NCBI RefSeq assembly: GCF_902713615.1
Contig: NC_052158.1
Location: 37,935,729 to 37,999,728 of the forward strand
DNA: 64,000 nucleotides
Source: Scyliorhinus canicula
Taxonomy: Eukaryota
Direction of reading: 5' to 3'
Positions 34,514 through 60,675 of the stretch are shown piece after piece. Below the pieces are notes generated by a model that worked only from the letters and a program-made list of their open reading frames with translations, had not been told where the DNA came from and did not search any database. The stretch's first letter is position 1; each line of letters begins with the position of its first letter. The translations under genes were made by a program, and so were the position numbers.

Positions 34514-35386
34514 TGAAGCCATCTAGGATGGCCACTTTCAGAATACAAAATGGAGACTCACAGAGAATGTAGGGAAATGTGGATAATGCCAGACAACAAG
34601 CAGGCACAGTGTCTGAATGTATATTTGGGATGCAGTTACCAGACGGAGTCGAAACTCTGGGTCGTTTAGCATATTGATGGCCAATCTCCGAGGAACAAAG
34701 GACTAACACTCAGGTAGTTGACACTGTCGCAGACATCCCGGCGCCAGTACCCCAAACGAAAAACACAAACAAAGCAAGGCCAACGGCTACCTAAGGCACG
34801 GCCAGCCATCAGGGCACTCACCCCTTTATTGGTTAAGATTGATAACAATGATCGAGAAACTGCCCAATTAATTGGACCAAGTTTAAGGCTCACCTAAAAG
34901 CGTGCAAAGCCCCTCCAAGTATAAGAAGGAAACTCCACGAGAGATTTACTCTCTTGGATTTGGCTCTCAAGCGGAGTGACCCATCCACCAGCATCACCAG
35001 AAGCAACTGAGTCCAAGGTCAACGCTCGCAATCAGATGGACCACCTTCGCTGTTCTCTTATTATCTCTTGAACCTAACAGCCTCAGATACGAACAACGGC
35101 CATTGTTCCTCTGACTAAGTGGGCAGCCAAAGTTAAGTATAGCCGTTAGCGATACAGATAGTTTAGTTTGTGGTACTATAGTGCATGAGTAGATCTTACT
35201 GTGTGTGTAAATAAATAGTATTGACTTTGAACTAACTAACTGGTGTATTGGCTCTTTGATCGGTATTCGGATTGAACCTTGTGTCAGTATCGAGAGATAC
35301 CTGGCGACTCTGAATGTACTCATAATTAGAATTAAGAACGGCGACCACATTGACCGCCATTTTATAACCAAATAAATATAGCAACA
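34514..35386 (+). repeat. 5' LTR of copy A
   Basis: TG...GCAACA termini; aligns with 56624-57438 (clearly diverged by eye); TATA-like GTATAAGAA near 34919 and AATAAA near 35210. Confidence 0.88.
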
Positions 35387-35390
35387 TTAC

Positions 35391-35412
35391 TGGTGACTCT
35401 GATGGGATTCGA
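35391..35412 (+). promoter_or_regulatory. Primer binding site, probably tRNA-Arg(UCU)
   Basis: TGGTGACTCTGATGGGATTCGA, 4 nt after the LTR; close to the complement of the vertebrate tRNA-Arg(UCU) 3' end (TGGCGACTCTGGTGGGATTCGA, recalled from memory). Confidence 0.7.
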
Positions 35413-35704
35413 CATAGAAGTGGCTTTGTCACTCTGAGAGAACCCAAATTTGAATCAGAATCCAATTGGAAAAAGAAAAACCACAAGCGTAAGACCAATA
35501 TCGATCAAACACCAAATTTGGGAAGTGAGTTATTTGCATGCGTGCTAACAAGGGATACAGGTAAACTTGATAGCTTTTGTTGCGTAACTGTCTGGAGTTT
35601 GGTAGGCCGGAAAATAGCGTGAGCCGTTCCCATGTTTACATCACCACTTTATTCCCCGCTGTTCCAAATTCAGTAGAAACCCAGAGTTTGCAATAGAATT
35701 GGAA

Positions 35705-38352: not shown

Positions 38353-41300
38353 CAGTGTTCAGACCCCCTAACCTGGGTCTGCGACACCCTTTGGGCCAAG
38401 TCCAGAAGACTGGTAGTGGCAAGCTCAGTCCGGGGACAACCCATAGAATTTATTTCATAGAACATAGAACATAGAACATAGAACAGTACAGCACAGAACA
38501 GGCCCTTCGGCCCTCGATGTTGTGCCGAGCCATGATCACCCTACTCAAACCCACGTATCCATCCTATACGAGTAACCCAACAAACCCCCCCCCTCCCTTA
38601 ACCTTACTTTTTAGGACACTACGGGCAATTTTTTTCATGGCCAATCCACCTAACCCGCATATCTTTGGACTGTGGGAGGAAACCGGAGAACCCGTAGGAA
38701 ACCCACGCACACACGGGGAGGACGTGCAGACTCCGCACAGACAGTGACCCAGCCAGAAATCGAACCTGGGACCTGGAGCTGTGAAGCATTTATGCTAACC
38801 ACCATGCTACAGTGCTGCCCACTAATGCTACTGTGCTGCCCACAGGAGTGCCCCGCACCACGTTCAATTCAACCAAAATATTTCAGCAATACACATGGCC
38901 CACCACAGACACCATTACTCTCCGCGGTTTTACAGGGCACTTGCAGCAGGGACGCATTACAGTCCCGGTAGCGATTCAGATAGGGAACATTAAAACCAAA
39001 CACCCCGTACTTCTAGACGATCTATCCCAGACAACCGAACACATTTTAGGTATAGATTTTATGAGCTCCCACAATCTATCGTTCGATCCCCTAAACAAAT
39101 GTGTGTGGAAAATGGCTAAGGCAGCATGAGAACCCACCACGCTCACAGTTGGAGACTACGCACACAGAATTAGTGCAGTAGGAGACTTCTGGTTTGCCCC
39201 TCGAGCCATTAGTCAGCACAGAGAAGTTAGGGACATTTTGCAACGACACAAAGCAGCATTTGCCCAGTACAAGCACGACTGTGGCAATATCGCTGGCTTA
39301 GTAAACATTACAGCTCCCGACCCCAAACTCCAAAAGCAGTAAGGTTTTCCCAAAGAAACAGATCAAGAAATCTGAAAGGTTATCCGGAGTTTGCTTGACA
39401 AAGGCGTACTCCGTTCAGGAGCCTCAACAAACAATGCACCAATTTGGCACGTCAGGAAACCCAATGGATCATGGCGACTGACCATCGATTATCAGGAAAT
39501 AAACAAAGTATTCTCAATAGCGGCCCCCACCGTAGCCAGGAGTCCCGAGACAATGCTAAAACAGGGACTCCAGTCAAAAGAATCTCTCGGTTTTGGACAT
39601 TAGCAACGACTTTTGGTCCCCTCCATTGTATAATGCGTGCCAATATAAATTTGCTTTCACCTTCCAGGGACAGCAATACACGTGGACGTACCTTCCACAT
39701 GGCGTACACAACTCCCTCTCCATTTTCCAGTGACAGCTGGCGAATGGGTTAGCCAAATCTTTCCGACACGATTGCCTTGTCCAATATGTTGATGACTTGC
39801 TTCTACAGACAGACACTAAGGGAGAGCATATTTCGCTTCTCACAGAACTATTAGAATTCCTTTAACAAATTAGATGTAAAGTGAAGCCCAAAACGGCCCA
39901 GATTCTCCAGGAAAAAGTAATTTACTTTGGAAAAGTCATCACCCATGGCGGACGCGAGATCGAGGAGAAATGCATCGACTCCATTGTCACATTACCCCTG
40001 CCCCATAATGTCACAGCCCTCCGGTCATTTCTCGGACTGGTTGGCTACTGTAGGATCACATTGACGGTTTTGCCACAAAGGCAGCGCCCCTTTCCGAACT
40101 CCTAAAGAAGCAAGCATCATGGGAATGGCTTCCACAGCACACGGATGTCGTGGATGCATCAAAACGAGCCCTCAGCACAGCCCCCACATTACAGGTCCCA
40201 GATCCACTCTCCTCATACGCAATTGAAGTTACAACCTCCGACCGAACCCTTTCGGCCGTGCTCCTCCAAGAATGACACGATCGTTTAGGACCTGTAGCAT
40301 AGGCCTCAGGAGTACTTGATCCAGTAGAGCAAGGATTTTCTGCCTCCGAAAGGCACCTGCTTGCAGGTTTTTAGGCAGTTCAATAGTTCGCCTACATTAC
40401 ATGACTCAACCCCGTAACCATTTTAATTGAGCACACCCCAACCCAACTTCTTCCAAATGGTAGACTAAAGGATGACAGAGTCAGCCAAATTCGCGCCACC
40501 CAATGGACCCTTATCTGACAGGGACGGGACATTACAGTTAACAGTGCAAAAACACACACTTTCCTCGCAGACAATTTACACTATGCCAACACCCCACATG
40601 CATGTGAAATCATCTCCACCAAGCACAATATAGGACCCTTTGGACGAAAGACAGCCTCACCTGAAACCAGGTACTACACCCCAGAGACACCAGCCCACAG
40701 ACATAGGCACACTCCTAAAGATTTATGTGGATGCCTCCTCCACAGTGTTGAACGATAAGAGGATTACCGGTTGCGGTATATATGTAGAGGACACAGAAGG
40801 ATGCATGTTAGAGGAGATATCCTTGAAACTGCCTGGACATCTAGGCTCACAGGCAGCTGAACTAGCAGCCGTAGTGTATATTGTAGAGCACCCTGACTCG
40901 TTCCCGACCCCAGCTGACATATATTCCGACAGTCTATATGTCTGTAATAGTTTAACAGAATTCCTACCCCTGTGGAAATCTAGAGGTTTCGTTCACGCAG
41001 ATGGAAAAACCACCACCCTCAGCCCCATTACATCAGCATAATCTAAGGGCAGCTCAAGATCGAAAATATGGTATTATCAAAGTTTGTAGCCAGCATTGTT
41101 CTCCCTGCCACCCCCCCCCCCTCCCCACCCCCACCCCCGCCACTCCCGGTAACGTTAAGGCAGACGCTCTAGCAAAGGCAGGTTCCAGACACGGTCACTT
41201 TTGGAATCCCCCTAGAGTGCCCCTGTACACGCGGTCCAAGACTCACAGACCAAAATTCAGGATCTAGCTCAGGCCCAAAAGGAAGACGCTCAGCTCAGGG

Positions 41301-42368
41301 AAGTTTTAAAACACAACTTCCCAGCCCCTTATGATAAATACAAGAACACATTGACGACATATGACGGTGTAATTTTAAAAGAAGGTATTTATGTGGTCCC
41401 CGCCCATGACATAAACCAATTTATCTGCCAATTACCATTAGAGCCATGGATATCAAGGCGTGGAAGCAACCCTCGGCCACCACAGACCTCTCTGCTGGTG
41501 GCCAGATTCGAAATCCAATGTAACGCATTACATGGAAAACTGTTAAATGTGCTGCCAGAACAATCCAGACAGATATGCAAGGAAAGGTCAGCTTAGCCAC
41601 ACAGCTCCATTAATTGCCCCTGGACGAATTTGCAGATTGATTATATAGGACCCCTACCCCACTGCGAGAATCGTTTTAAGTATGTGTTGGTGGTCATCGA
41701 CACTTTCAAAAAAATGGGTGGAAACTTTCCCATCCAGAACGAACACGGCTAAAGCGAAGCCATGATGCTCACTCAGCATACCTTTACAAGGTGGGGTCTT
41801 CCCCACAGCATAGAATCAAAGCAAGGGTCATATTTTATAGGACGAGTGATAAAAAACATCATCACAATTTTCGGAAGCAAACAAGAATTTCACATTGCAT
41901 ATCACCCCAATCAAGCGGAATAGTTGAGAGAATGAATAGGACACTAAAAGCAACCCGATGGAAAATGGTGCAACAGCACAGTAGCACCTGGGACACAGTT
42001 ATCCCCTTTGCACTAATGTTCATAAGGAACAAGGTATCCACGTCGACAGGATACACCCCTTACACCCTCATGACCAGACGACCCATGAAGGGGACAGAAT
42101 ATTTGATAGGACTCGATTTGGCCAGCCTAACGGTCACTGCCCTCATCCATGAGAAAGCAGTTCAGGAGATTATCGATAATGTAAATACCGCCCATTTCGC
42201 TGCAGCTGTTAGGCTTGAGACACGAAAGAAGCAAAGTAAAGTTTGCTGTGACAAAACAGTACATGCCACAAAATTTGTAGTAGGACAGCAGGTTATGTCA
42301 TCACTACAGCAGCTCAGTTCATTCCTTTCCCCCAAATTTGCAGGACCCTACTACATTTTTGATAAAGT
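38353..42368 (+). pseudogene. pol: pol of copy A (PR-RT-tether-RH-IN, degenerate; IN C-terminus resumes at 55381)
   Basis: NNAPIWHVRKPNGSWRLTIDYQ, QYVDD, IYVDASS..SQAAELAA..IYSDSLYV, SGIVERMNRTLK, FAGPY. Confidence 0.85.
38456..38841 (-). mobile_element. HE1-type SINE inserted at the protease active site of copy A
   Basis: The insertion splits IEFI|(WD)|TG, where copies B and C read LWDTG. Confidence 0.85.
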
Positions 42369-42837
42369 TCATCTTGCAGGCTTGAACATCTTCCGAGGCC
42401 CTTGGAGACCTTTTGTACTGACCCGACCTTACCTCGGCGGCCTGGAAGACGATCGGGACCAACCGGAAGTGAAGCCCTGACCTCGATTTGGAGTCGACAC
42501 GGACCTCGGAGCTCCAAACCCGGCCTAACTACCGACGCCATTCCCCGGAGCGCCTGGCCAAGTCCTCAGAGCTCCCGACACGACCTCCGATGGCAAGACC
42601 TGTCCGAACGCGACTTCGAAAGACCCGCCCAGCGTCACGATCCAGAGAGACCCACCCAGCAACCCGACTGACCTGGTGATGGAAGAAAGAAAAATCTACG
42701 TGGAGGCCCGACCGGGCCTGCTTCAAGATCCGACCCAGGAGCGCCCAGGGAGGGTACAGACCATGGGACCCAGCCCAACCTGCCTCAGGAAGCCCCTGCC
42801 CATGACCCAGGACCCAGAAACGCCGGAGACAGCGCAA

Positions 42838-43802
42838 TGTAGCCATCAAAGATGGACACCAGTCTACAAAATGGAGAACCACAAAGAATGCCGGGAAAAA
42901 CAGGCATAGTAAGGACACACAGCTTGCAGAATCATTTAGCATTTTTCACGTACAAAACCGGTTTCAAGGCAGTTGCAGAAACTCAGCCAAAGGTGCAAAT
43001 AGGAAAGCGATCTGCATACTAATGAGGTGATACCGGCCCAGTCCCAGACACAATAGAAACGTTTTATGTATCAATCGATACTTTTCTATAGCTACCCAGC
43101 CAGGATGGTACCAAAGAAACCAGAACAATGACCCCTAAGAGCCGCCCCAGCCATCAAGAAACGACCCCAGGATAGGGGAGTTCAAAACGTATCAATCGGG
43201 AAAGACCCAATCGATGAGGGAACCGCCCCAAGGGGGCCTGGACCTCCTGGGACCTATAAAAAGAAGGTCCCGCACATGATTCTGTCTGTTGCATCCTGAC
43301 TCCGGCCTAGGCTGTTGCATCCTGACTCCGGCCTCCGACTCCAGCCTCCAGATCCTGTCTTTCATCACCGGCCGTTGAGCATCAGCCATCTATCAGTAAG
43401 TGCCCAAAAGAACGATCGCTACGTGACCCAGGCATTGCTTATACTCTTGCCGACTTTAATAACCAGAAGTTGCAGACCAAGAACGGGATGAAGGCTTTGC
43501 CCCCTGACCTTGCCCGTTCCTTTCTAGATAAGTATTTAGTCGTTTAATGGTAGAAATAAGTATGAGTCTTTTAGCGTGTGCATGAGTATTTATTATATTT
43601 GTTATAATGAACACTAATTGTTTGGACTTACTGATCGGTGTTTAGATTTATTGCTTTGAACTTGACCTTGATAACTTGTGACGGTGTCTCTTACGGCACC
43701 TGGCGACTCCAGAGCATAGATACAGTACAGAGCCAAACCAGTGTTAAGCACATGTCCTTTATTGGAGGCATGTTAATCACACTAACAGTAGAACGAGCAA
43801 CA
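42838..43802 (+). repeat. 5' LTR of copy B
   Basis: Direct repeat of 51709-52674; TG..CA ends; TATA (CTATAAAA near 43254); internal tandem repeat CTGTTGCATCCTGACTCCGGCCT x2. Confidence 0.95.
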
Positions 43803-43807
43803 TTTAG

Positions 43808-43831
43808 TGGCGACATCCTGACGGGACACGA
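43808..43831 (+). promoter_or_regulatory. Primer binding site of copy B (tRNA-Arg-like, bulged)
   Basis: TGGCGACATCCTGACGGGACACGA, 5 nt after the LTR end. Confidence 0.6.
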
Positions 43832-44115: not shown

Positions 44116-45854
44116 ATGGCCATGCAGGCAACGGAACGCCTCATGAACTCAGAGCAGTTCTTGTTCGCAGCGACCAGCAGAGTAGGTCAGTTTCCCGTGT
44201 GGGAGCTGGAACTCCGCAAGTATCTGAAATGGAAAGGATGGCCCCTTTGGAATGAGTTTAGTATGAATGAGGAGACAGGTCCCGAGAGTATAGGACATAC
44301 TTGGTGGGAGAACCTCTCTCAAATTCATAAGAAAAATCCGAGTAAAGCACGCAAGCCGATGGCAATCGTGTCCTGCTTGGTACAGTTGCGAGGCACTGAG
44401 GAGGTCGTTCGGAAGCTCCGGGCAGAGTTTGAAGAGAGGAATAGAATGAGTAAAGTGGATGTCAGGGACATCGAGAAGGAAAACTTAGAAATAAGAGGGA
44501 AGCTGGCAGAGAAGGGTAGAGAGGTGGATGATGCCAAGAGGGCACATCAGTCGTGTCTAGCCCATCTGAGCAGTTCCCAGACCCAATACGAAAAAGCCTA
44601 TCAATATGTGCAACGTGCAGTCCTGATAAGTGAGGAATCGGAAAAGCAGGTAGAGGCATTGCAGAGGCAATGCTCTGACCTAAAGGCAGCTTTAAGAGCA
44701 CTCCATGCTGCCACTACTGAGCAAAGACAGAGCACAGTAGACCATGCAAAATGCAGAAAGCAGATTGCGGAGCTGCAATCGCTGCTTTCAGTGCAGAATG
44801 GGTTCCAAAGCACTTTTGGAACGCAGTTAGATGAGGAGAATGCCCCAGACTGGCAGGAACTGAGTGAGACACTGCAGCGCTATGTTCAAAGAACATGTGC
44901 AACAGCAGCGCAGCAGAAAAGGAAAGCACCCCAACACCCCACAGATCAGATAGCATCCGCACCTATGAACCCAGTCACCACCCAAAGAAAGGCAACCACA
45001 GACGGCGCACCCGATATCACCTACACCACCCCCTTAACTGTAACGCATCTCAGGGACGCGTGTGAGAAAATCACTCCATTTCTCCCCACCGCAGACCCCC
45101 ACCAATTTTTCGCAAATGTTAAAGTGCAGGCTACCACGTACGGCCTGGACGATAGAGAGCAGGTTAAGCTCACGGTTCTGAGCTTAGACCCATCCGTAGT
45201 AGCAGCCCTCCACGACCCATAGAACGTTGGAGGAGGCACACTAGAGGAAATGCACACCTCCATTTTAGATGCAATAGGGTATAACAGAGGAGACCCAGTT
45301 GAAAGACTAAATAAATGCAGACAAAAGAGAACAGAGCATCCCACAGCATTTGCAGGAAGGCTGTGGATCCATTTCACTGAAGTTTTTGGCGAATTAGACC
45401 GAGCGCATTAAACCGTGACAACATGGTTAAATGGTCGCGCACCATAATCTCCCATGCCACAGATGCAGGACAGAGTACTTGCAATAGTTACGACCACTCA
45501 GAGGAGGCCCATAACGTGAAACGGGTTCTGGAAAGATTGCCCCGCGCTTGGGAACAATCGGTTCAGGGCAAAATTAAAATAAAGACCCAAGATGAAGCTC
45601 AGGCTGCAGCGGATATTCAGGCAGTGAGAGCGCACCAAAACCCCGCATGGGTAAACAAAGGGAAGAACAGCCCTCCACAGAAGTCGCAGGAATGCTACAA
45701 CTGTGGTCAGTTAGGACATTTTGCTAAGGAATGCAATGCACCCCAAAGATCACAGAGAGGCCAGCAGACAGGCACTCTGAACAGAACTAGAGCGAAGCCT
45801 ATTCACAGTTTAGGAATACAGTCAGGACAGACCAATGTGGACAGAACGGACTGA
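44116..45854 (+). pseudogene. gag: gag of copy B (coiled-coil N-half, capsid, single CCHC knuckle); one premature stop (45220) and a frameshift (~45410)
   Basis: ORFs 44116-45222 and 45423-45854; MHR-like CRQKRTEHPTAFAGRLW; CYNCGQLGHFAKEC. Confidence 0.88.
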
Positions 45855-48800
45855 CGGTGCTCGGGCTCCCCCACTTGGGTCTGTGACACCCTCTGGGACC
45901 AATCCGGGAGGCCGGTAATCACAGCAAAGTTTCGAGGGAAGCCCTTAGAGTTACTTTGGGACACAGGAGGGTCCCGCGCCACAATTAATTCCACCACCAC
46001 GGCACAGGCAGACACGTGGCCGACCACATCCACCATTACACTCAGCGGTTTTACAGGACACTCACAGCAGGGACACATTACAGCCCTCGTAGCAATTCAG
46101 CTAGGGAACATCTCCACCAGACACACCGTTGTATTAGTTAATCTGCCCTGTACAGCAGAACACATAATGGGTATAGATTTCATGAATGCCCATAGACTGT
46201 CGTTCGATCCAGTAAACCAGTGTGCCTGGCGAATGGCAAAATCAGACAGAGCACCCGCTACTCTCACAGTAGGAGAGTATGCAAATTGGATTAGCGCAGT
46301 AGGCGACTATTGTTTCGACCCGACCACGCTTAGCACGGACAAACAGGTTAGGACAGTTCTGAATAAACACAGGACAGCATTTGCCAGTCACCGGCATGAC
46401 TGCGGCAGAATGACTGGACAAGTTCAAGTTACCGGACCTGACCCCCGACCACAGAAACAGTACCGATTTCCCCTAGAAGCAGAGGGAGAGATTGGAAAGG
46501 TTATAGATAGCTTATTGGAGCAAGGTGGACTTAGGACAGTAGCCTCGACCAATAATGCTCCTATTTGGCCAGTGAGAAAGCCCGACAGATCATGGCGTCT
46601 GACCATCGATTATCGGGAGCTCAACAAAGTAACCCCAGCAGTAGCCCCCATGGTAGCAACAAGTCCCGAGATCATGCTCAAACAGGGACTCCACTCCAAA
46701 TATTTCACGGTATTGGACATCAGCAATGGCATCTGGTCAATCTCATTGGCAAAGGCGTGCAAGTACAAATTTGCCTTCACATTTAAAGGACGGCAGTATA
46801 CGTGGACATGCCTCCCACAAGGATTCCACAATTCACCCTCCATTTTCCACCGACAGCTGGTAAATGGTTTAGCAAACTTTTCCCGCCCCGAATGTCTGGT
46901 ACTGTATGTGGACGACCTATTACTGCAGACAGAAACAAAGGCAGAGCACATTACGCTTCTGGCCGAGCTCCTGCAACTTTTAACCTCGATCGGATGCAAA
47001 GTTAACCCCAGAAAGGCCCAGATATTAGAAAACAAAGTGATGCATTTGGGTACAGTCATCACGCACGGCAAACGCGAGATCGAATTCAAAAGGATTGATT
47101 CGGTTGTCAAATTGCCCCTTCCCCAGAATGTTTCAGCCCTCCGGTCGTTTTTAGCACTGGTTGGTTACTGTCGGAACCATATCGATGGTTCTGCGACAAA
47201 GGCAGCCCCACTCTCAGACCTCCTTAAGAAAGGAGCGCCATGGGAATGGCTTCCGCAGCTGACAGAAGCTATGGAAGCATTAAAGAAAGCCCCCAGCGCA
47301 GCACCTGCGCTACAAGTCCCAGACCAACTCTCCCCCTATGCAATAGAGGTAGCGAGCACAGATCTGACCCTCTCGGCCGTGCTACTCCAGGAACGGCACG
47401 AGCAGCTAAGACCAGTGGCTTATGTCTCCAGACTTTTAGACCCCATCGAGCTAGGATTTTCAGCCTGCAAGAGGCACCTCCTAGCAGTTTTTTGGGCAGT
47501 TCAGTACTTCGCGTACATTACCGGACTCAATCCCATCACCATTTTGACCGAGCACACCCCCACACAGTTACTTTTAGATGGTCGACTGAAGGACGGTTCA
47601 GTGAGCCAGATAAGAGCAGCTAGATGGACGTTACTGTTACAAGGACGGGACATAACAGTTAAACGGACCAGGACACACACATTTTTAGCCGACAACCTCC
47701 AATATCCAGGACAGCCCTATGAATGCGAATTGTAACACCCCTACACAAAACAGGACCCTTCATAGCAAAGACACCCCCCAGAAAGATAGGGAATTCAAGC
47801 CAGAGCCCCCAGCACACAGACACATGTGACCCACTGAAAATATATGTGGACAGTTCATCCACAGTTTTAGATGGAGAACGCATCACTGGATGCGGGATTT
47901 ATGTTGAGGATGTGCAGAGTCGCGCATTAGAAGAAATCTCTTTAAAATTACAAGGACACTTATGCGTGCAGGCAGCAGAGCTCGCGGCCATCGCATACAT
48001 AGTGGACCACCCAGATTCGTTTCCCAGCCCGGCAGACATATATTCGGACAGTTTGTATGTCTGTAACAGTTTAACAGATTTTCTACCCCTGTGGAGGACA
48101 CGAGGTTTTGTCTCCGCAGACGGGAAGCCCCTTCCATCAGCCCCATGACTCCACCATATCTTAGACAAGGCAAAGGATAGGGCGTATGGCATAATCAAAG
48201 TTAGAAGTCACCATAGGTCACCCCCTCTGGAAATGTAAAAGCCGACACACTGGCAAAAGCAGGTTCCAGGCGAGGGCACTTTTGGACACCCCCAGCTAGC
48301 GCACCAGCCAGCGCCCCTGTGAGTGCAGTTCAGGTCTCACGACGGAAATTAAAGATTTAGTTGAGGCACAGAAACAGGATAGAGATCTCAGGGAGATTTT
48401 TAAAGGAAATTTTGTGCACCAATACGATAAGTTCAGACACGCTTTGACCACACATGAGGGTGTGATAATTAAGGATAAACTTTATGTGGTTCCGGAACAG
48501 GATAGGAATCAGATGATTGCCTTGTTCCATGACAGTCATGGACACCAAGGGATCGACCCGACCACAAGACACCTCAGGCAACTCTGTTGGTGGCCAAATT
48601 TAAGAAACGATGTAACAAATTACATCGAGAATTGCCTAATTTGTGCACAAAATAACCCGGAGTGGTACTCGAAAAAGGCACAACTTAGACATACTCGACC
48701 AGTTGATGGCCCCTAGACTAACCTCCAGATCGATATTATAGGACCATTCCCCCCTTGTAGGAATGGCTATAAATATGTTCTGGTCGTTATAGACACCTTT

Positions 48801-50083
48801 ACCAAATGGGTAGAGGCATTCCCCTCACAAACCAATACAGCTAAGACAGCTGCAAATATCCTGACCCACCACATCTTCACGAGATGGGGTCTCCCGAGAA
48901 GTATAGAATCAGATCAGGGATCTCGCTTCACAAGACGGGTCATGAAGAACGTTCTGACAATATTTGGCATTAAACAACATTTCCACATTGCGTACCACCC
49001 CCAGTCAAGTGGGATAGTCGAACGCATGAATCGGACCCTAAAATCGACCCTTAGAAAAATGGTTCAGGAGAACAATTCAACATGGGATTCAGTACTCCGA
49101 TTTGCACTCATGTTCATCTGCAACACGGTTTCATCATCCACAGGATTCACCCCATACACACTCATGACCGGAAGCCCTATGAAAGGTACAGAACTCCTTT
49201 TAGGACTGGACATGCTAGACCCAAAGTGACGGCCCTCACACATGAGAAGGCAGTCAAAGATTTAGTTGAGACTGTGAGGTCTGCACAGTTAGCAGCCGCA
49301 GTAAAATTGGGAAAAAGATGAAAACAAAGCACAGCTTGCTTTAATAAGAATGTACACCCCACAGAATTTCAGGTTGAACAACAGGTAATGTTATCTGTTT
49401 ATAACCCCAGCAGCTTTTTGGCACCTACATTTTCCGGCTCGTATTCAATTTCGGACAAAATTAGCCCCTCCGTTTACAGAATAAAATACCCCAACGGTAA
49501 GATTGCGTGGTTTCATATTAACCAACTGAAGATATATGGAACACAGTCTAACCACACACACCATGTCCTGCTAGACGCAGTAGAACATCTCGCCCCGACC
49601 CCTATAGACACATTTCCACCATCCCCCTCACAGACCAGTTCCTCATCGGACTCGCCCACGACTCTGTCCACTGACTTCAGACCACGCCCCGAAACGCCCA
49701 CAAGCTGCCACAGCAGAGACAGCGACACTGACTCAGACAATGAGGACAGCCACAGCACCCAACCCTACAGCCCCCACTGTAGCAACTACGACCCCGACTC
49801 CAGTGACCCCATGGTGGTCACCTACGTTAAACACCCAGACCCACCACCCGACCCCAACGACCCCAACAGTGCCCCATCAAACTTAGATACCACACTTTGG
49901 CACAGGGACAATTCATGGAGACTTGTCCGTAATGATGAGAGTGACCCCCAGTCACATAACGGACAGATCGCATGCCTGATCCATACAAGAGTATGGGATC
50001 CGGGAGAAAAGGAAGACTTGATGTCTGACTCCCGGTACGGCAACCCCTTTGTGACCCTGTTCACAGAGAGAGAGGAGAAGTGA
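45855..50083 (+). pseudogene. pol: pol of copy B: protease, RT, degenerate RNase H (tether), RNase H, integrase with long C-terminal tail
   Basis: LLWDTGGS (DTG 45960-45968), LPQGFHNSP, YVDD, IYVD.SS/AAELAA/IYSDS/GNVKAD, HDSHGH..CLIC, LQID/SDQG/VERMN. A few stops and frameshifts. Confidence 0.92.
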
Positions 50084-50973
50084 GGTGTCCAGATGATGTA
50101 AAAGAGGAACCACTTGAGGGAAGCGATATCCTTTCTAATGGAACCTGCACGTATGTTTTGTTTGTTTGTGTTTGTTTGTTGCTGATATGTTAAGGGTTTG
50201 ATTGGAGATCAGATCACAGTCTTTTCAGCTGAAAAACTTGTGACCGCCTGGCACACACGTTAGCTTGTCTGCAGAAACTTCTGAGAACTACTGTTAGATA
50301 TCCTCTGGTGAACCGACAAAGTTCACGACTTGTAATCTGTTTTCAGATGTTGGAGCACCTTGGCTCCTCCCTTGTTTTTCAGGTGCCCCTCTATTCTGTG
50401 AATAGAATCTGCAATTCCACGATGAATACATTCATACCCGTTCATTTCAGGTTGCTCAGGCAGTGGAGAAACGGCATTGAGGACCCGCCCTGTCTGAGAA
50501 CCCCTTTGGTCATCCTAGCTCGGGTACGGCACAGCATGCCTTACCTGGGGATCCCATACAAATCTTACCCGTAGCGGCCCATACGGAACTCATTCGGCCT
50601 TTTCGTTTGAAATTTGGTTTCATTTTTCTTGAGGTAGCCCTTCGGCAGCCATCCCACGTGCTATTTACATCCAGGAACATTCGGATGGTAAATAACAAAA
50701 CCTGCGAGACGGCTCGCAGTGGTAAAGTTGTTAGGTGTGCATCCGCTCCTAAATTCGCATTTGAAAAAAAAAATGAGGGGAGTCACAGGGTGTGACTTGG
50801 CCATTAATTTAATGGCCAATTGGAATGAGAGGACAGATACACTAACAGTACAGATATTAAACTGTGTATTGACAGATACTGTGCTTGATCCCATAGCTTT
50901 CGAACAGTCAAAGGAGGGTTCACGGCAAGGATCGGCCCTACAAAGGAAGAGAAGGAAGAGAACAAAGAAGACC

Positions 50974-51321
50974 ATGATGGAAGCCTACCTATTTATTTTA
51001 AATATTGTTGTATTTTTGCATGTTGAAGCAAATCATGTTTCCCCCACGACCCCCACCGTTAATGTTTCCCACACACCGACTTCTCCGTGCTCAGCACTGA
51101 TCAGTGAGGTTTAGACCTGGTGCACGAAATTCATGACCTGGTACTCGATGTCGTATGTGATTGAATCACTGTTGGTGATTGCAATTCTCTGCATCATAGT
51201 ACAGACCCTCAGGTTGAGGAAATGGAAAAGGAGAGCCTCCCGTTCCTGCCCCTCAACCATTTACGGAGCTCATTCCCCTATTTTCGGTTATCACCAATAC
51301 CCCCAACCCCTTGATGCATAG
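50974..51321 (+). pseudogene. Small type I transmembrane protein ORF in the env position (115 codons, one in-frame TAG at 51112)
   Basis: MMEAYLFILNIVVFLHVEA-NHVSPTTPTVNVSHTPTSPCSALISEV*TWCTKFMTWYSMSY-VIESLLVIAILCIIVQTL-RLRKWKRRASR..PIFG..; Kozak context accATG; homolog at 55869-56237. Confidence 0.8.
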
Positions 51322-51688: not shown

Positions 51689-51708
51689 TGAGGATCACAA
51701 GGAGGGAA
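51689..51708 (+). promoter_or_regulatory. Polypurine tract of copy B
   Basis: TGAGGATCACAAGGAGGGAA directly before the 3' LTR; the same motif lies at 56604-56623 in copy A. Confidence 0.8.
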
Positions 51709-52674
51709 TGTAGCCATCTAAGATGGACACCAGTCTACAAAATGGAGAACCACAAAGAATACAGGGAAAAACAGCCATAGTAAGGACACACAGGTTGCAG
51801 AAGCATTTAGCATTTAGCACGTCCAAAACCGGTTTCAGGGCAGTTGCAGAAACTCAGCCAAAGGTGCAAATAGGAAAGCGATCTGCATACTAATGAGGTG
51901 ATACCGGCCCAGTCCCAGATATAATAGAAAAATTTTATGTATCAATCGATACTTTTCTATAGCTACCCAGCCAGGATGGCGCCAGAGAAACCAGAACAAT
52001 GACCCCTAGGAACTGCCCCAGGCATCGAGAAACGACCCCAGGATAGGGGAGTTCAAAACGTATCGATCGGGAAAGGCCCAATCGATGAGGGAACCGCCCC
52101 AAGGGGGCCTGGACCTCCTGGGAACTATAAAAAGAAGGTCCCGCACATGATTCGGTCTGTTGCATCCTGACTCCGGCCTAGGCTGTTGCATCCTGACTCC
52201 GGCCTCCGACTCCAGCCTCCAGATCCTGTCTTTCATCACCGGCCATTGAGCATCAGCCATCTATCAGTAAGTGCCCAAAACAACGATCGTTACGTGACCC
52301 AGGCATTACTTATACTCTTGCCGACTTTAATAACCAGAAGCTGCAGACCAAGAACGGGACGAAGGCCTTGACCCCTTACCTTGCCTGTTCCTTTCTAGAT
52401 AAGTATTTAGACGTTTAATAGTAGAAATAAGTATGAGTCTTTTAGCGTGTGCATGAGTATTTATTATATTTGTTATATTAAACACTAATTGTTTGGACTT
52501 ACTGATCGGTGTTTAGATTTATTGATTTGAACTTGACCTTGATAACTTGTGACGGTGTCTCTTACAGCACCTGGCGACTCCAGAGCATAGACACAGGTAC
52601 AGAGCCAAACCAGTGTTAAGCACATGTCCTTTATTGGAGGCGTGATAATCACACTAACAGTAGAACGAGCAACA
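51709..52674 (+). repeat. 3' LTR of copy B
   Basis: Direct repeat of 42838-43802. Confidence 0.95.
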
Positions 52675-55600
52675 GCGCCCAGACCCGGATGCGCTGTAAG
52701 GTATTCCCGCGCCCGCAGAATGCCGGGACCCATCTGGATTGCAAACATGCCCCCCTTAAAACCCCGCTAACTCAACCAGTGCCCGGGACCCCGCCAGACG
52801 CTACCCGGATACGTACCCAGCACCCTGGACCCCGCTATCACCCTGGACCCCGCCATACGCAGCCACCTATCTTCCACAAGGGCAGACGTCTCCCATCAGA
52901 TCCTAGGATCATCCAGCAGCAGCCACCAACCGAGGAACCGAGGGAAACGTGTCGGTCTGCTGGTTAGACTGAAGCAACGTGGTTTCAAGACCCCCTCTCC
53001 CCAGCATGCTCCTGGCAAACATTTAAGCGATTGAAAACAAGCTGGATGAAAGTAACGCCAGACTTACCTTTAAGAGGAAAGTAAGGGACTGCTGTGTGCA
53101 CTGTTTCACAGAGACATGGCTCACCCCCGCCTCACTGGACTGTGCCTTAAAACCTGGTCTCAATTCACCGGGTGGACCGCACGGCATCATCAGGCAGAGT
53201 GAAGGGTAGAGGGGTGTGCCGACTCATCAGCTCCTCCTGGTGCTTGAATGTGGCGACACTGGGGACCTACTGCTCTCCAGACCTGGCATACCTGACCGTG
53301 AAGTGCTGCCCATGCTATCTTCCACCTGAGTTCAGTTCAGCCATTATCACAGCGGTCTACATCCCGCCCCAGGCAGAAGTGAGGAAGGCGCTGGACGACC
53401 TGTACACAGTTGTAAACAACTATGAAGCAGAACACACGGAGGCCTTGTTTATCGTGGCCCGAGACCAACAAGGCCAACCTCAAGAGTGTACTGCCAAAAT
53501 TCCACCAGCACATCTCCTGTTCCACCAGGGGTGACAACACTCTTGACCACTGCTACTCAAAAGTAAAGGGCGCCTACAGTTCCATCCCCCGACCGCACTT
53601 TAGGAAATCAGACCATAAGACAGTGCTCCTTCGCCCAGAATACAATCAGAAACTCAAGCGGGATAATCCAGCTAAGAAGGTTGTGCAGTGCTGGTCCAAG
53701 GGGACAGAAGAGCTCTTATGTGACTGCTTAGAGACAGTGAACTGGCCCATATTTAAGAACTCAGTGACCAACTTAAATGAGTATGCCACCACCGTCACAG
53801 ACTTCATCAGCAAATGTGTGGACGACTGCATGCCAAATAAAGCAGTATTTACGTTCCCCAACCGGAAACCATGGCTCAATCGCAAGATTGACTCTCTACT
53901 GAAGGATAGATCTGAGGTGTTCAAAGCAGACGACCCTGACCTATACAAAACATTCAGGTACGACATCCACAAAGCCATCTCAGATGCCAAGATAGAATAT
54001 CAAACCAAGCTAGAGTCACAGACAACGTGCCTCACTGACTACCATCCAGTGGCCCTGACTTCAGTCGTAATGAAGTGCTTCGAGATGTTGACCATGAAGC
54101 ACATCACTTCCATGCTCCTAGAACACCTTGATCAACTGCAATTCACATACCGTTGCTACCGGTCCACATTCGACGCCATTTCCCTGGCCCTACACTCATC
54201 CCTCGAGCATCTCGAAAACAAGGTTTCCTACATCAGACTCATATTTATTGACTACAGCTAAGCCTTCAACTCCATAATCCCAGCCAACCTCATGTCAAAG
54301 CTCCAAAACCTAGGACTTGGCTCTCCACTCTGCAACTGGATCCTTGACTTTCTGACCAACAGACCACAATCAGTAAGAATGAACAACAACACCTCCACCA
54401 CAATAGTCCTCAATACCGGTGCCCCGCAAGGCTGCATACTTAGCCACCTACTCTACTCCCTGTGCACACACGACAGCGAGGGAAAACTTGGTTACAGCTC
54501 CATCTACAAGTTTGCTGATGAGCTGGTTCTCGAATAACGACGAATCAGAATACAGGAGGGTGATAGAAAACCTACTGGAGTGGTGTAGCGACAACAATCT
54601 CTCCCTCAAAGGCAGTAAAACTAAAGAGATGGCCATTGACTTCAGGAAACAAAGTACTGTAAACACTTCCGTCAGCATCAACGGGGCCGAGGTGGAGATG
54701 GTCATCAGTTTCAAATTCCTCGGGGTACACATCTCCAAATATCTGTCCTGGTCCACCCACGTCGATTCTACCACCAAGAAAGCACAACAGTGCCTATACT
54801 TCCTCAGGAAACTAACGAAATTCGGCTTGTCAACATTAACCCTCACCAACTTTTACAGATGCACCACAGAAAGCATCCTATCGGGCTGCTTCACAGCCTT
54901 TTATGGAAACTGCTCGGCCCAGGACCGCAAGAAACTTCAGAGAGTCATGAAAACCGCCCAGTCCATCACACGAACCTGCCTCCCATCCATTGACTCCATC
55001 TACACCTCCCGCTGCCTGGGAAAGTGGGCGGCATAATCAAAGATCCCTCCTAACCGGCTTACTCACTCTTCCAACTTGTTCCATCGGGCAGGATATACAC
55101 AAGTCTGAGAACACGCAGTCTGAAACTCAAAAACAACTTCATCCCCGCTGTCACCAGCATCCTAAATGTATCTCTTATGGACTGACCACATTAACACTAA
55201 ACCCTGTATGCTTCATCCGATGCCAGTGCTTGTGTAGTTACAATGTAAATGTTGTGTTGCCCTATTATGTATTTTCTTTTCTTCCCATGTACTTAATGAT
55301 CTGTTGAGCTGCTCGCATAAAAATACTTTTCACTGTAAATCGGTACACGTGACAATAAACAAATCCAGTCCAATCAATCCAAGTCAGCACATCCGTACAT
55401 AAAATCACATAGCCGAATGGCAAATCTGCATGGTTTCACAAAACCAGCTTAAGTCTTATGGCACACAGAACATCCATTCACACCACATCTCACTTGGAGC
55501 AGCAGATGAACACGCCCCGCCCACTGACGACCTATTTCTACCCTCCCCCAACCAGTCCAGCGACCATTAGGTCGCTCTCCATATGCTATTTACATCCTCA

Positions 55601-55868
55601 AACACTGGCACGATACACTCACAGCATCGATCACACAGGCTGCGAGACTGCTCGCACTGCGACAGTATTTTCTTCTTGTATGTCTTGTCCCAAAATATTT
55701 CTTTTTTTTTTAAATGAGGGAGTCACAGGTGGTGACCAACTTTAATGGACAATTGATAATAAAGGACAGATATACGAGACCTTAAACAAGATAATAACAC
55801 ATACGCTTGTGTCCAGAGAAATCCAGAACCACAGAAGCCATAGGAAGACCAAGAAGGAAGAAGAGAAC

Positions 55869-56237
55869 ATGAAGACATACATCATGGTCGACATTTGGAT
55901 CTTCGCAGGATCCCTACATTTGCGCCCGGATGCAACCCCCCTGACTCCTACACCACAGGATGTGAATGTTTCCCATCCCTGCCACACAACACCTGGATAC
56001 AGCCACTGATACATCAACCTCGAGACAGCCACTGATACACCGCCCTGGTGTGACAAGTTAATCACCTGATATTCCCTGTCCTACATTGTTGAAGCACTGA
56101 TAGTCATTGCAATACTCTGCAGTGTCATCCAGACACCGAGACTTAGGAAATGGCGAAGGAAAGCCTCCCGCACTCCGGTATATTCCCTCAGACCCCCTAT
56201 TTTCGGACTTCAGCAAACCCCCACTCGCTTAAAGTGA
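55869..56237 (+). pseudogene. Small TM protein ORF of copy A (homolog of 50974-51321; two in-frame stops)
   Basis: MKTYIMVDIWIFAGSLHLRPDATPLTPTPQDVNVSHPC...PPWCDKLIT*YSLSYIVEALIVIAILCSVIQTPRLRKWRRKASRTPVYSPRPPIFG, all in one frame. Confidence 0.75.
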
Positions 56238-56623
56238 ATAAAATGCATCGCCTAACTTAGTTGTTTGTTCTAATAAAAGAAAGATTAAAAATCCTGTACT
56301 TGACCTCCAAGATACAGAAACATGTATTGCTGCTGTTGTATAGTTTATGCTGTTATAAATTATTTTAAGTGACTAAGGATAGTTTAGATAAGAATAGTTA
56401 GAGGTACCCGTGTTTTAATTGTAATGCATGCCTTAATGTCATAGTGCCCCATAGAATTTTATAATAATGTGTGCATATAAAGCAATTTAAGTCAAAGTTC
56501 CAATCCATAGGAAGAGTCGAGTGGAATTTGTCCTTGACTGCGGGTGCTCGACTTAAGCAGAGAACAAGGAAGACGCAGTAACATGAGTCTTCACGCTTCA
56601 CGTTGAGGATCACAAGGAGGGAG

Positions 56624-57438
56624 TGTTGACATCTGGGATGGCCACTTTCAGAATACAAAATGGACGCTCACAGAGAATGTAGGGAAATGTGAACAATGCA
56701 GACAACAAGCAGGCATAGTGCCTGAATATATATTTGGGAAGCAGTTACCAGACAGAATCAAAACTCTGGGTCGTTTAGCATATGGTGGCGCACATCCGAG
56801 GAACAATGGACTAACACTCAGGTATTTGATACTGTTGCAGACATCCCGGCGCCAGTACCCCAACCGAAATTCACAAACAAAGCAAGACCAACCTCCACCA
56901 CAGACACGCCGAGCCATCAGGGCACCCGCCCCTTCATTTTAAGATTGATAACAGTGATCGACTAGCTGCCCAATTAATTGGGACCAAGTTTAAGGTTCGC
57001 CAAAAAGCACGCAAAGCCCCTCCAAGTACAAGAAGGAACACCCTCGAGAGATTCGCTCTCTTTGATTTGCCTCTCAAGCTGGAGAGACCTATCCACCAGC
57101 ATCACAAGAAGCAAGTAGGTCCAATATCAACGCTCTCTCCCAGATGGACGACCTTAGCTGTTCTCCTGTTATCTCCTCGAACCCGACAACCTCAGATCCG
57201 AACAAAGGCCATTGTTCCTCTGACTAAGTGGGCACCCGAAGTTAAGTATAGACGTTAGCGTCAGAGATAGTTTAGTTTGTAGTACTGTTGTGCATGAGTA
57301 AATCTTACTGTGTGTATAAATAAATAGTATTTACTTTGAACTAACTAAGTGATGTCTTTGCTCTTTGATCGGTTATCGGGTTGAATCTTGTGTCGTTATC
57401 GAGAGATACCTCGCAACTCTGAAAGTACACATAATTAA
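56624..57438 (+). repeat. 3' LTR of copy A (3' end deleted)
   Basis: Homologous to 34514-~35328; preceded by the PPT; runs directly into mid-gag sequence. Confidence 0.85.
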
Positions 57439-60400
57439 CCGTGACCCAATTATGGGACGCGTGTGAGAAAATTACACCGTTCCTCCCCACTTCAGATCCC
57501 CACCAATTCTTCACTAAGGTTAAACAGCAGGTCACCATGTACAGACTGGACGAGAGAGAGCAGATAAAGCTCACAGTTTTAATCCTCGACCCTTCAGTCG
57601 TGGCAGCGCTTCCCAACACACAGAATGTAGGAGGAGGCACCCTAACAGAGATGCACACAGCAATCCTTGATGCGATCGGCTACAACAGAGGAGACCCGGT
57701 AGAAGGTCTAAACAGATGTAGGCAAAATAAAACAAGAGCACACCACAGCTTTTGCTGGACGCTTGTGGATTCATTTCACCGCAGTTTTTGGTAAATTAGC
57801 CCGCGCCCATTTGTCCCCAGATAACATGGCAAAATGGACTCGAATCTTGGTCTCCAATGCAACAGAGGCAGGGCAGAGAGCATGCGCGAATTACGACCCC
57901 TCAGATGAGGACCACAATGAGAAATGGGATTTGAAAATGTTATCCCGCGCTTGGGAGCAATCCGTTCAGAGCAAGACCACATTTAAGAAACCCAAGGAAG
58001 AGCAGGGAGATGCAGACATGCATACATAAAAGCACACCAGAACCCCGCATGGATAAATGAGAGTAGGAACAGCCCACCCCAGCCCAAATCACAGGAGTGT
58101 TACAACTGTGGTCAGTTAGGACACTTTGCACGAGAGTGCAACGCGCTGCAGAAACAGAGAGTGCAGCAGACAGGCACCCTAAATAGAAATAGGGCAAAGC
58201 CCATACATAGTGTTAGTGCCCGTTCAGACCATGGAGACATGACCGGCACAGAGTGACGGTGTTCGGGCTCCCCCAACTTCGGTCTGCGACACCCTTTGGG
58301 ATAAGTCCGGTTGACCGGTCGTAGCAGGCAGAGTCCGGGGTCAGCCCGTTGAATTTCTTTGGGACACAGGAGGGTCCCGCACCACACTCAATTCCTCCAC
58401 GATGTTCCAGAGGGACACGTGGCCCACAACAGACACCATTTCCCTCAACGGCTTTACAGGTAATTTACAACAGGGATACGTCGCAGCCCCTGTATAAATT
58501 AAATTGGCAACATAACCACCAAGCACCCCATAGTGTTAGTCGATGTGCCCTACACAGCAGAACATATTTTAGGGATCGACTTTATGAGCTCCCATAACCT
58601 TTAATTTGATCCAGTCAATAAATGTGTTTGGAAAATGGCAAATCCATCACGAGCCCCCGCCACGCTCACAGTAGGAGAGTATGTAAACTGGATTAGCTCA
58701 GTAGGAGACTACTGCTTCGACCCGCGAACCATTAGTGCAGACAAACAGGTTAGGGCAGTCCGGCAAGAACACAAAGCAGCATTTGCACAGCACAAGCACG
58801 ACTGTGGCAGAATGGCTGGCTCTGTGCAGATTACAGGTCCTGACCCCAGACCCCAGAAGCAGTACGGATTTCCCCAAGAAGCAGAGGGAGAAATCGCGAA
58901 AGTTATAGATAACTTGTTAGACCACGGCGTACTGAGATCAGTAGCCTCCACTAATAATGCCCCGATTTCGCCTGTCAGGAAACCGGATGGATAATGGCGA
59001 CTGAGCATTGCTTACCGGGAACTGAACAAAGTCACCCCAGCAGCAGTCCCCACCTTAGCCACAAGTCCCGAGACCATGCTCAAGCAGGGACTCCAAACAC
59101 GATTCTACGGTTTTGGACATGAGTAAAGGGTTTTGGTCCATTCCATTAGCTAAAACGTGCCAGTACAAATTTGCCTTCACCTTTAACGGACAGCAGTATA
59201 CGTGGACATGCCTTCCAAAAGGCTTCCACAACTCCCACTCCATTTTCCACCGACAGCTGGCAAATGGATTAGCTGAATTTTCCCGCCCCGAATGTCAGGT
59301 CCAGTATGTAGACGACCTGCTACACAAAAGTCAGACAGAAAAGCAGAGCACATTTCGCTTCTAGCAGAACACCTAGGACTCCTCAAAGAAATTGACTGTA
59401 AGGTAAACCCCAAAAAGGCCCAGAGTTTGGAAGAAAAAGTGATATACTTGGGAACAGTTATCACACATGGTAAACGCCAGATCGAGCAGAAGAGGATTGA
59501 CTCGATTGTCAAATTCCCCTTCCCCACAATGTCTCAGCCCTGCGGTCATTTTTAGGGCTGGTTGGCTACTGCCAAAGGCACATGGACGGTTTCGCCACGA
59601 AGGCAGCGCCCCTATCCGAACTTCTCAAGAAGCAGGCGCCTTGGGAATGGCTTCAACAGATACCGTGGATGTTTAAAAAGAGCACTCAGCACATCCCCGC
59701 ACAATAGGTCCCAGACCCACTTTCTCTGTATGCTATCGAAGAAGTCGAACCCTTTCGGCTGTGCTCCTCCAGGAACGCCATGACCAGTAAAGACCCGTGG
59801 CATAAGCCTCACGAGTGTCGAGCAAGGATTTTCTACCTGTGAAAGGCACCCGGTCGCAGTTTTTTGGTCAGTACAGTACTTCTCATACATCACAGGACTC
59901 AACCCCATCACCATCCTCACCGAACACACCCCAACACAGATTTTATTAGACGGCCAACTTAAAAATGGCACAGTCAGCAAAATCCGAGCAGCCCGTTGGA
60001 CCCTTCTTTTACAGGGATGGGACATCACAGTTAAAAGAACAAAAACACAAACCTTCCTTGCAGACAATTTACAGTACCCAGGCACCCCCTCATGAATGTG
60101 AGATTATCTCCACACAGCACAAGACAGGCCCATTCATTCAAAAGACACCTCCCAGGAAAATAGGTTCCACACACACAGAGACCCCAGCCCACAGACACGT
60201 GCGCACCCCTGAAGATTTATGTGGACGGCTCCTCCACAGTTTTGAATGGCAAACGCATAACAGGTTGCGGCATTTATGTAGAGGACGTGCAGGGACGTGC
60301 CCTAGAAGAGATTTCCCGAAAGTTGCCAGGACACTTAGGCTCGCAGGCAGCAGAGCTGGCAGCAATCGCATACATAGTAGACCACCCCGACTCATTCCCC

Positions 60401-60675
60401 ACTCCAGCCGACATCTATTCAGACAGCCTGTATGTCTGAAATAGTTTGACGGAATTCCTACCCCTGTGGGAAACAAGAGAATTTGGTTAAGCAGACGGAA
60501 AACCCCTACCATCAGCCCCATTACTCCGCCATATTTTACAGCAGGCAAAGGAAAGGAAATACGGAATTGTCAAAGTTCGCAGTCACCACCGTTCTTCCCC
60601 CCACTCGTAATATTAAAGCAGACGCCCTAGCAAAGGTAGGTTCTAGACATGGTTATTTTTGGAACCACCGTGAAT
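57439..60675 (+). mobile_element. LTR element copy C: internal fragment (gag CA-NC, PR, RT, tether, RNase H), truncated at both ends
   Basis: TQLWDACEKITPFLPTSDPHQFF, CYNCGQLGHFAREC, FLWDTGGS, LPKGFHNS, YVDD, VDGSS..SQAAELAA..IYSDSLYV. No integrase or downstream LTR. Confidence 0.88.

Follow-up and report, generated by a model that had tools for sequence, protein, structure and literature searches.

The 64,000-nucleotide stretch of the catshark Scyliorhinus canicula analysed here (the window; contig NC_052158.1, positions 37,935,729 to 37,999,728, assembly GCF_902713615.1) contains a pol gene that is part of a 9.8-kb long terminal repeat (LTR) element at 42838-52674. The element is a decayed provirus of a very abundant endogenous retrovirus (ERV) family that lacks env. 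In the env position the family carries a small open reading frame (ORF), ORF3, which encodes a putative single-pass membrane protein and is under purifying selection. We give a probability of roughly 0.8 to the reading that the element belongs to the deep grade of Retroviridae outside class I and class II (the grade called 'SnRV-like', after snakehead retrovirus, or clade Huo), that its env was lost, and that ORF3 is a selected protein. The combination of a CCHC knuckle in Gag, a class-III-like reverse transcriptase (RT) and a dual RNase H is an already documented layout, and the real interest of the element is the selected small membrane gene standing where env was. The usual view of ERVs without env is that all membrane functions have gone with it; here a membrane gene has been kept in the env slot under strong purifying selection.

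Results and discussion

A conserved small reading frame in the env slot

The distance from the pol stop to the 3' LTR is 1,625 nt in the window copy and ranges from 1,377 to 1,625 nt in the copies measured. Over the final 1,570 nt upstream of the 3' LTR, no sense frame in any of the nine near-full copies stays open for more than 152 codons, the longest per copy being 116 to 152 codons; in the older subfamilies, none of the 14 loci with a pol end had a frame of at least 200 codons between that end and the expected polypurine tract. An earlier annotation made by a model from the letters of the window, referred to below as the sequence-only reading, had reported the absence of env. No long frame indeed precedes the 3' LTR, but the slot is not empty, and the conserved ORF3 had been overlooked. 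Several other ERV families of this genome do bear env genes with a gamma-type transmembrane subunit, some of them about 563 codons long (L151-L170, L191-L195).

The ORF3 product has about 114 amino acids (112-118). It begins with a hydrophobic segment that has an A-x-A-like end, followed by a Pro/Thr-rich stretch that contains an N-glycosylation sequon and by a segment rich in Trp, Cys, Phe and Tyr; next come one predicted transmembrane (TM) helix, six to eight basic residues, and a tail with an invariant Tyr and an invariant PIF motif. A polar residue, Glu63, is conserved inside the TM helix, a near-invariant Cys stands at the end of the helix, and the moment of the pre-TM segment is 0.37-0.54. 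The sequon occurs in nine of the ten aligned rows. The ectodomain has only one invariant Cys, and position 2 is not Gly. In an AlphaFold model the protein forms two helices, confidently predicted only near the TM region (mean pLDDT 64).

Twenty further copies of the family were picked by RT for long open pol frames. ORF3 is present in 18 of these 20 loci and is open over at least 112 codons in 15 of the 18. It is also open in all five other loci of the window's subfamily that were picked by their 3' LTR, and it was found in 13 of 20 loci from two older subfamilies as well as, in decayed form, in an older provirus within the window. The ratio of nonsynonymous to synonymous change (dN/dS, Nei-Gojobori) over the whole ORF is 0.15-0.53 (0.53 among copies of the window's subfamily, 0.15-0.49 in the other comparisons between or within groups), and in comparisons with the oldest subfamilies, where dS exceeds 1, it is 0.10-0.22. 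The constraint is uneven: dN/dS is 0.04-0.12 in the core, 0.10-0.28 in the tail and 0.34-1.05 in the N-terminal part, so that selection acts mostly on the aromatic residues next to the membrane, on the TM helix and on the basic tail in the cytoplasm, and not on the outer ectodomain. The other two sense frames over the same region give 1.1-2.0. In each of five pairs, pN was equal to or higher than pS in 0 of 1,000 codon bootstraps. Three-base periodicity was seen in the ORF3 core and in neither of the two flanking blocks tested, and the AG of the candidate splice acceptor before ORF3 is kept in 11 of 12 aligned copies. One might suppose that ORF3 is a chance frame lying over a conserved RNA element, and the non-coding blocks upstream of it are also moderately conserved (63-79% against the far subfamilies, per-bin values being rough). 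However, the frame-specific dN/dS, the excess of third-position change and a frame kept open across subfamilies at dS above 1 make this explanation hardly credible. Some young copies also have a 54-aa ORF upstream of ORF3, which we discounted because the window lacks it and its block shows no codon periodicity.

The family is also expressed. In the oligo-dT run X24, 1,614 of 15.0 million reads matched one young copy at 88% likeness, mostly on the read strand that means sense RNA in most stranded libraries. Depth over gag-pol was 0.5-11, against 26-84 in the stretch that begins just past pol, spans ORF3 and reaches into U3. Run X23 has poly(A) ends 18 nt downstream of the AATAAA of the LTR, and contigs from a run labelled as a second organism likewise cover the ORF3 bin. 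Several TTTCAG acceptor-like sites at 50220-50451, directly after pol, are less conserved than the one before ORF3, and an RNA depth peak occurs there in both raw runs. A block at about 50390-50700 shows conservation but no codon periodicity; it may act in cis as an RNA element, for instance in export. ORF3 is thus a coding gene under purifying selection, common to all subfamilies sampled and transcribed at the family level. Whatever its role, it has been useful to the element through many rounds of copying, synonymous sites being near saturation across subfamilies.

Searches for relatives of ORF3 gave no homologue at E of 1 or less among four candidates. In Pfam nothing exceeded the cut-off for ten ORF3 members, with weak matches to TMEM156, FAM174 and adenovirus E3; the best Atlas scores were 0.88 and 0.89, below the lead threshold of 0.9, with a resemblance to Flu M2 at 0.84 and 0.87; and Foldseek with the ORF3 model on BFVD returned nothing under E 2. 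In the literature within reach, which excludes most subscription papers as well as Dfam and Repbase, we came across neither this family nor a vertebrate ERV whose env is replaced by a small membrane ORF; the ERV tables of PMC6001957 may include the lineage.

Layout of the element

Coordinates in the window copy are given in Table 1. The two LTRs differ by 45 substitutions in 965 sites (Kimura two-parameter distance 0.048), and the copy is defective in gag, pol and ORF3, with in-frame stops at 45220, 48146, 48714 and 49319 and frameshifts near 45400, 47730, 48220-48350 and 49225. The 4-bp target site duplication (TSD) of the window copy is degraded (GCAA/GCGC). At 17 of 20 solo LTRs of its subfamily an exact 4-bp duplication is present, and the remaining three have a single mismatch. 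According to Chong et al. (2014), 4 bp is typical of ERV1 and 5 bp of ERV3 and ERV4.

Table 1. Proviral features and related fragments in the window (positions in the 64,000-nucleotide stretch)
Feature	Position	Strand	Remarks
5' LTR	42838..43802	+	TG...CA, 965 bp
TATA in 5' LTR	43255-43262	+	
Donor-like GTAAGT	43396-43401	+	Within predicted R region of 5' LTR
Primer-binding site	43808..43827	+	20-nt variant
gag, broken	44116..45854	+	Stop 45220-45222, frameshift near 45400
gag stop UGA, then CGG	45852..45857	+	In frame with pol; type II read-through context
pol, broken	45855..50083	+	Protease, RT, tether, RNase H, integrase
Protease DTG	45960		
RT YVDD	46905		
Tether	~47247-47642		
RNase H	~47837-48246		
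Candidate branch point CACTAAC and splice acceptor (AG 50895-50896)	50840..50896	+	~80 nt 5' of ORF3 start
ORF3	50974..51321	+	115 codons, env position; in-frame stop 51112-51114 (codon 47) in window copy
Polypurine tract	51699..51708	+	
3' LTR	51709..52674	+	966 bp
Older related provirus, 5' part	35380..42369	+	~69% nucleotide identity, ends inside integrase
Likely 3' part of older provirus	55374..56690	+	Integrase end, decayed ORF3 (55869-56231), polypurine tract, LTR start; no env
Third related fragment	57435..60663	+	gag to RNase H, 74.5% identity

Gag of the window copy has a helical region at its N-terminus and a single CCHC knuckle (C-x2-C-x4-H-x4-C, 45693-45734). The Pfam order is zf-CCHC (E 1e-7), aspartyl protease (PR), RVT_1, RT_RNaseH/RT_RNaseH_2 corresponding to the tether, RNase_H (E 3e-8), Integrase_H2C2, rve and a sub-threshold SH3_Tf2-1. 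In an alignment with Gypsy RNase H the catalytic positions of the tether are gone (TDAS versus VAST, ERE versus ERH, TDH versus TEH), and the second RNase H keeps D-E-D-D. The sequence-only reading had described this arrangement, a tether without catalytic acids followed by an RNase H with catalytic motifs and then integrase (IN), together with the CCHC knuckle, and both are borne out, by the Pfam order and the alignment and by the zf-CCHC match, respectively. The motifs it quoted are also present, with two small deviations in the window copy (IYVDSSS in RNase H and LDISNGIW in RT). IN has the HHCC motif, the core, a GPY-like motif and an SH3-like domain, followed by a tail rich in Pro, Ser and Asp. 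This extension (49540-50083) has about 180 aa, and its terminal motif is kept across subfamilies, with 45-58% identity in most.

Among the 20 RT-picked copies there are intact frames, with a Gag of about 584 codons and a Pol of about 1,411 codons in one frame. An in-frame TGA lies at the gag/pol junction in 21 of 21 copies, as UGACGG in 19 of them, and UGA-CGG is a known type II read-through context (PMC13517186); Pol would be made through read-through of this UGA. The primer-binding site (PBS) of two copies (L108 and L119) is an exact 18-nt (18/18) complement of a tRNA-Arg(TCT)-like 3' end, a match that depends on an ARAGORN call for a degenerate tRNA copy at a relaxed score, and other copies have variants. 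ARAGORN run without introns gave no tRNA at five PBS-pattern matches. Priming may use tRNA-Arg. The family has at least four PBS variants (L082, L087, L089, L108, L114, L116-L121), and a change of primer or a site of composite make-up may lie behind this variety. The family thus has what an ERV needs in cis and in genes for retrotransposition: LTRs, PBS, polypurine tract, a 4-bp TSD, and a gag-pol frame across UGA-CGG.

Phylogenetic position

Maximum-likelihood trees (LG+G4, no mixture model) were built for RT (80 and 39 rows, from 289) and for RT plus tether (33 rows). Anchors were named from the RT alignment in the supplement of PMC7947760; the SnRV row (P0013) was recognized by eye, and P0191 and P0076 are WEHV-1 and PERV. 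The element lies inside canonical retroviruses with support of 100/99 in each RT tree and 100/100 in the RT plus tether tree, with the loki-type rows as sister and Gypsy outside. A forced union of the element with loki-type RTs was rejected (approximately unbiased test, p-AU 0.0032), and the element has LPQG in RT, as canonical retroviruses do, where Loki RTs have PFG. In the RT plus tether tree, the element forms a 99/96 clade with Pols of Pyxicephalus, Xenopus and Latimeria and two unnamed Pols. The nearest Pols are those of frogs and coelacanth labelled 'NYNRIN-like' or 'Gypsy integrase-like', which are 44-51% identical over RT-RNase H; the 'NYNRIN-like' ones (P0002, P0003, P0005, P0006, P0008), as far as they are in the trees, form one clade with the element. 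With PR-RT-tether of the window as the query, frog and coelacanth Pols score 502-565 bits and SnRV, the best-scoring named virus, 303. Three loki-type Pols score 270-285, and foamy Pr125Pol scores 190, the same as MLV-type RT, so that the 'foamy-like' RT of the sequence-only reading was an overstatement. A scan of IMG/VR with the RT gave 39 pattern matches and no confirmed relative. In the RT plus tether tree a turtle- and bird-associated Pol group (P0009, P0259; P0127 is listed with them) branches first among canonical retroviruses (93/96), and P0230, P0266 and P0267 are long-branched, possibly domesticated relatives, one of them from an owl.

IN is closer to loki-type IN (45-47% identity) than to SnRV IN (33%), and so is the tether by BLAST score; a CGIN1/NYNRIN-like integrase is a feature of lokiretroviruses. 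We read this likeness as retained ancestral sequence. The family adds a slow-evolving taxon to those available for resolving the base of Retroviridae.

The closest described system is CmiERV lineage I of the elephant shark, which clusters with SnRV and is defined by a downstream env (Han 2015, PMC4422223). By eye, from the supplement, it shares with our family TG...CA LTRs of similar size, a repeat-rich helical Gag with one CCHC, and a TGA after gag; RT is about two-thirds identical over approximately 105 residues, and the tether CERHLLAV, RNase H YIDGSS, and IN GPWTN-QIDFIGP and YHPQSSG motifs are common to both. It differs in a full gamma-type env, few copies and another PBS, whereas our family has ORF3, Arg-type PBS variants and many thousands of copies. 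An env-bearing ERV with this structure had therefore largely been described already, as judged from motif likeness by eye, and since this relative bears env, the lack of env in our family is most simply a loss. SnRV shares with the element an RT that is 49% identical, the motifs LDISNGFWS and LPQGFH, and the gag-pol read-through layout. It differs in env, a UAG stop, its own accessory ORFs and the distant IN, and it is not the sister in the trees. SnRV is also said, from work by Hart in 1996, to have an Arg-tRNA PBS and a coiled-coil Gag. A CCHC Gag and a GPY/F-like motif in IN, which clade Huo and SnRV-like ERVs may have, and the gag-pol read-through layout are found in the element; Chong et al. 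(2014) note that a zinc finger in Gag and a GPY/F-like motif occur in some ERVs related to SnRV and Ovex1. The element is no ordinary Ty3/Gypsy member, having a dual RNase H with a catalytic second domain where Gypsy has a single active one, and an RT outside the Gypsy clade. ERV-L shares with the family the loss of env with a large expansion, the combination of the 'superspreader' idea, and it differs in having no CCHC, a dUTPase and a separate RT branch. ERV4, XtERV-S/ERV-L and ERV-Spuma.0-Sca were considered as the identity of the element, and all differ from it.

The sequence-only reading had proposed that the element is a basal or sister lineage at the retrotransposon-retrovirus boundary, similar to Loki or Odin, and that it never had env. 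A dual RNase H without env is the layout of the Odin retrotransposons of sea anemones, whose RT is sister to that of Loki (PMC7947760, PMC9040795), and the higher identity of IN and tether to loki-type sequences and the lack of resolution at the base of the IN tree could be taken in the same sense. However, RT lies inside canonical retroviruses in all three trees and thus away from the Loki side, the union with loki-type RTs is rejected, and the env-bearing CmiERV-I has the same motifs. Loki elements have PFG and an env that is a paramyxovirus-F-like protein, and no long ORF of this kind is present here; furthermore, Loki is reported absent from the chondrichthyan genomes screened. We consider a boundary lineage very unlikely. 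What survives of the proposal is that this is a deep-branching, conservative retrovirus lineage and not an ordinary Gypsy element, as indicated by its short branches, by IN and tether scoring nearer to loki-type than to SnRV in BLAST, and by the basal unresolved position of IN; the Loki/Odin-like sister position does not survive. Still less probable is descent from a foamy virus that became endogenous and acquired a CCHC knuckle. The YVDD and DxSNGFW motifs would fit such an origin, as would the donor-like site in R and the helical, non-myristoylated Gag, but foamy Pol scores far below SnRV and the frog and coelacanth Pols, Gag of Spumaretrovirinae has no CCHC, and foamy pol has its own start, while in the element gag and pol share one frame interrupted by a stop. 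ERV-Spuma.0-Sca, which has been published from the catshark, has another LTR start and LTR length, ORFs of other sizes, and an env.

Several points weigh against the reading that we favour. No foamy, Odin or class II rows were in the trees, and CmiERV, which was compared by eye only, was absent from them. SnRV falls outside the element's clade, in a polytomy or on a separate branch, although its union with the element is not rejected (p-AU 0.116); 'SnRV-like' is thus a grade and not a demonstrated clade. The IN tree is a basal polytomy. As for ORF3, its signal peptide was judged by hydropathy and the A-x-A pattern only, one comparison puts dN/dS of its N-terminal part at 1.05, close to neutrality, no homologue hints at its function, and the RT-picked loci, chosen for long open pol, are biased towards young copies. 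The step in RNA depth could be explained by the 3' bias of oligo-dT, no splice joint, to the ORF3 acceptor or otherwise, was listed for the reads, three joints lying outside the listing, and reads placed on one young copy at 88% likeness speak for expression of the family and not of the window locus. Finally, a stem-loop for read-through was not clearly above shuffles (z -0.7 to -1.9).

Possible role of ORF3

After the loss of env the family would have multiplied by retrotransposition, with replication probably remaining intracellular. ORF3 may be expressed from spliced RNA, as env is, and its product, with the putative signal peptide cleaved, would have its N-terminus outside. The outer ectodomain is nearly free to vary, and receptor binding by ORF3 is therefore unlikely. 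Gag has no Gly at position 2, and in the single open natural Gag scanned the late motifs PTAP/PSAP, PPxY and YPxL were not found, which makes a membrane partner for capsids plausible. Foamy Gag relies on Env for its membrane task. The role we tentatively place first, though at somewhat less than even odds, is that ORF3 took over a membrane task from Env: it would anchor or recruit capsids and might also help them pass into adjacent cells; a true fusogenic activity may make up about half of this share.

The fusogenic version would have ORF3 pass non-enveloped capsids from cell to cell, for example from gonadal soma to the germline, in the manner of the reovirus FAST (fusion-associated small transmembrane) proteins and of sORF2 in the MDG1 group (PMC11952523, PMC12945298). 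Like these, ORF3 is a protein of under 200 aa with a single TM helix and a juxtamembrane basic patch, and sORF2 likewise occurs in an LTR element without env. The size of 112-118 aa, the basic residues directly after the TM helix, a moderately amphipathic pre-TM segment and the Cys at the TM end fit this idea, as do the position downstream of pol, shared with some lepidopteran sORF2, and the retention of ORF3 through saturating dS despite the loss of env. On the other hand, FAST and sORF2 belong to Reovirales or Metaviridae, are usually myristoylated or have a cystine loop, and show no detectable homology to ORF3, which has neither an N-myristoylation motif nor a conserved ectodomain cysteine pair. 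The signal-like hydrophobic N-terminus and the sequon are not among the sORF2 features compared, and many type I membrane proteins combine a TM helix with a basic patch, with no sequence or fold match to narrow the choice. We therefore regard fusion as doubtful. If true, Retroviridae would have a counterpart to what has been proposed for MDG1 elements in Drosophila, and the expansion to many thousands of copies could be explained in part. A somewhat better candidate, next after the Env task as a whole, is a counter-defence or trafficking accessory protein that acts against host restriction or alters membrane traffic, comparable to Vpu, M2 or adenovirus E3. The conserved Glu63 in the TM helix, the invariant Tyr and PIF of the tail, the small accessory ORFs of SnRV and other fish retroviruses, and the sub-threshold Atlas likeness to Flu M2 would agree with it; however, the Atlas matches are below threshold and generic, and an intracellular retrotransposon has less need of counter-defence at the surface.

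Regarding its origin, ORF3 could be an internally deleted env in which the signal peptide was joined to the membrane-proximal region, TM helix and tail. In favour are its place in the env slot with an acceptor-like site ahead of it, the resemblance of its start to a signal peptide, the abundance of Trp and Tyr just before the TM helix and, by eye, a loose likeness to the TM anchors of envs in the genome. Yet the ORF3 profile finds no env: the best E value among seven env C-termini of the genome was 4.3, and nothing under E 0.8 was found in stored proteins. ORF3 has no furin site, CX6CC or heptad remnant, and it starts 890 nt past the pol stop, whereas the env of CmiERV-I begins close to it. 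Moreover, the env loci checked in the genome stand mostly behind class I-like Pols (three of five; one gave weak scores, the best of them class I-like, and one gave no hit). This origin is accordingly rated as improbable, on a par with fusion. For high-copy ERVs without env, ERV-L among them, we came across no report that a membrane gene under selection had replaced it. As the gene is small and natural open copies and family RNA exist, the topology, partners and possible fusion activity of ORF3 are directly testable.

Abundance of the family and its surroundings in the window

In the genome, first-look searches returned 51,413 candidates for RT, which are not copy counts and include more distant elements, and 7,062 candidates for ORF3. 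The best 150 RT candidates were scored, and all are 89-100% identical to the query. The LTR pairs are 98.2-100% identical, over the parts compared, in nine of nine refetched copies; together with the polyadenylated RNA, the copies whose LTRs are 99.5-100% identical suggest recent activity of the family. For elephant shark, coelacanth and lamprey, 100-700 ERV insertions are cited, and the ERV load of a shark can far exceed these numbers.

The older related provirus (Table 1) has apparently been split inside IN by a nest of insertions, consisting of a GC-rich unit that holds the window provirus (42370-42837 and 52675 to about 53150 around it) and then a LINE-like piece (53.4-55.3 kb). This piece is one of several decayed, strongly GC-skewed fragments of LINE-like RT; the others lie at 2.2-7.1 kb, 13-17 kb and 36.5-37.4 kb, and 36849-37353 and 54519-55023 are an inverted pair of 88% identity. 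A SINE-like repeat is present at least six times in the window, and a 79-bp tandem repeat in two copies (61292-61447) lies in an AT-rich stretch after the third ERV fragment.

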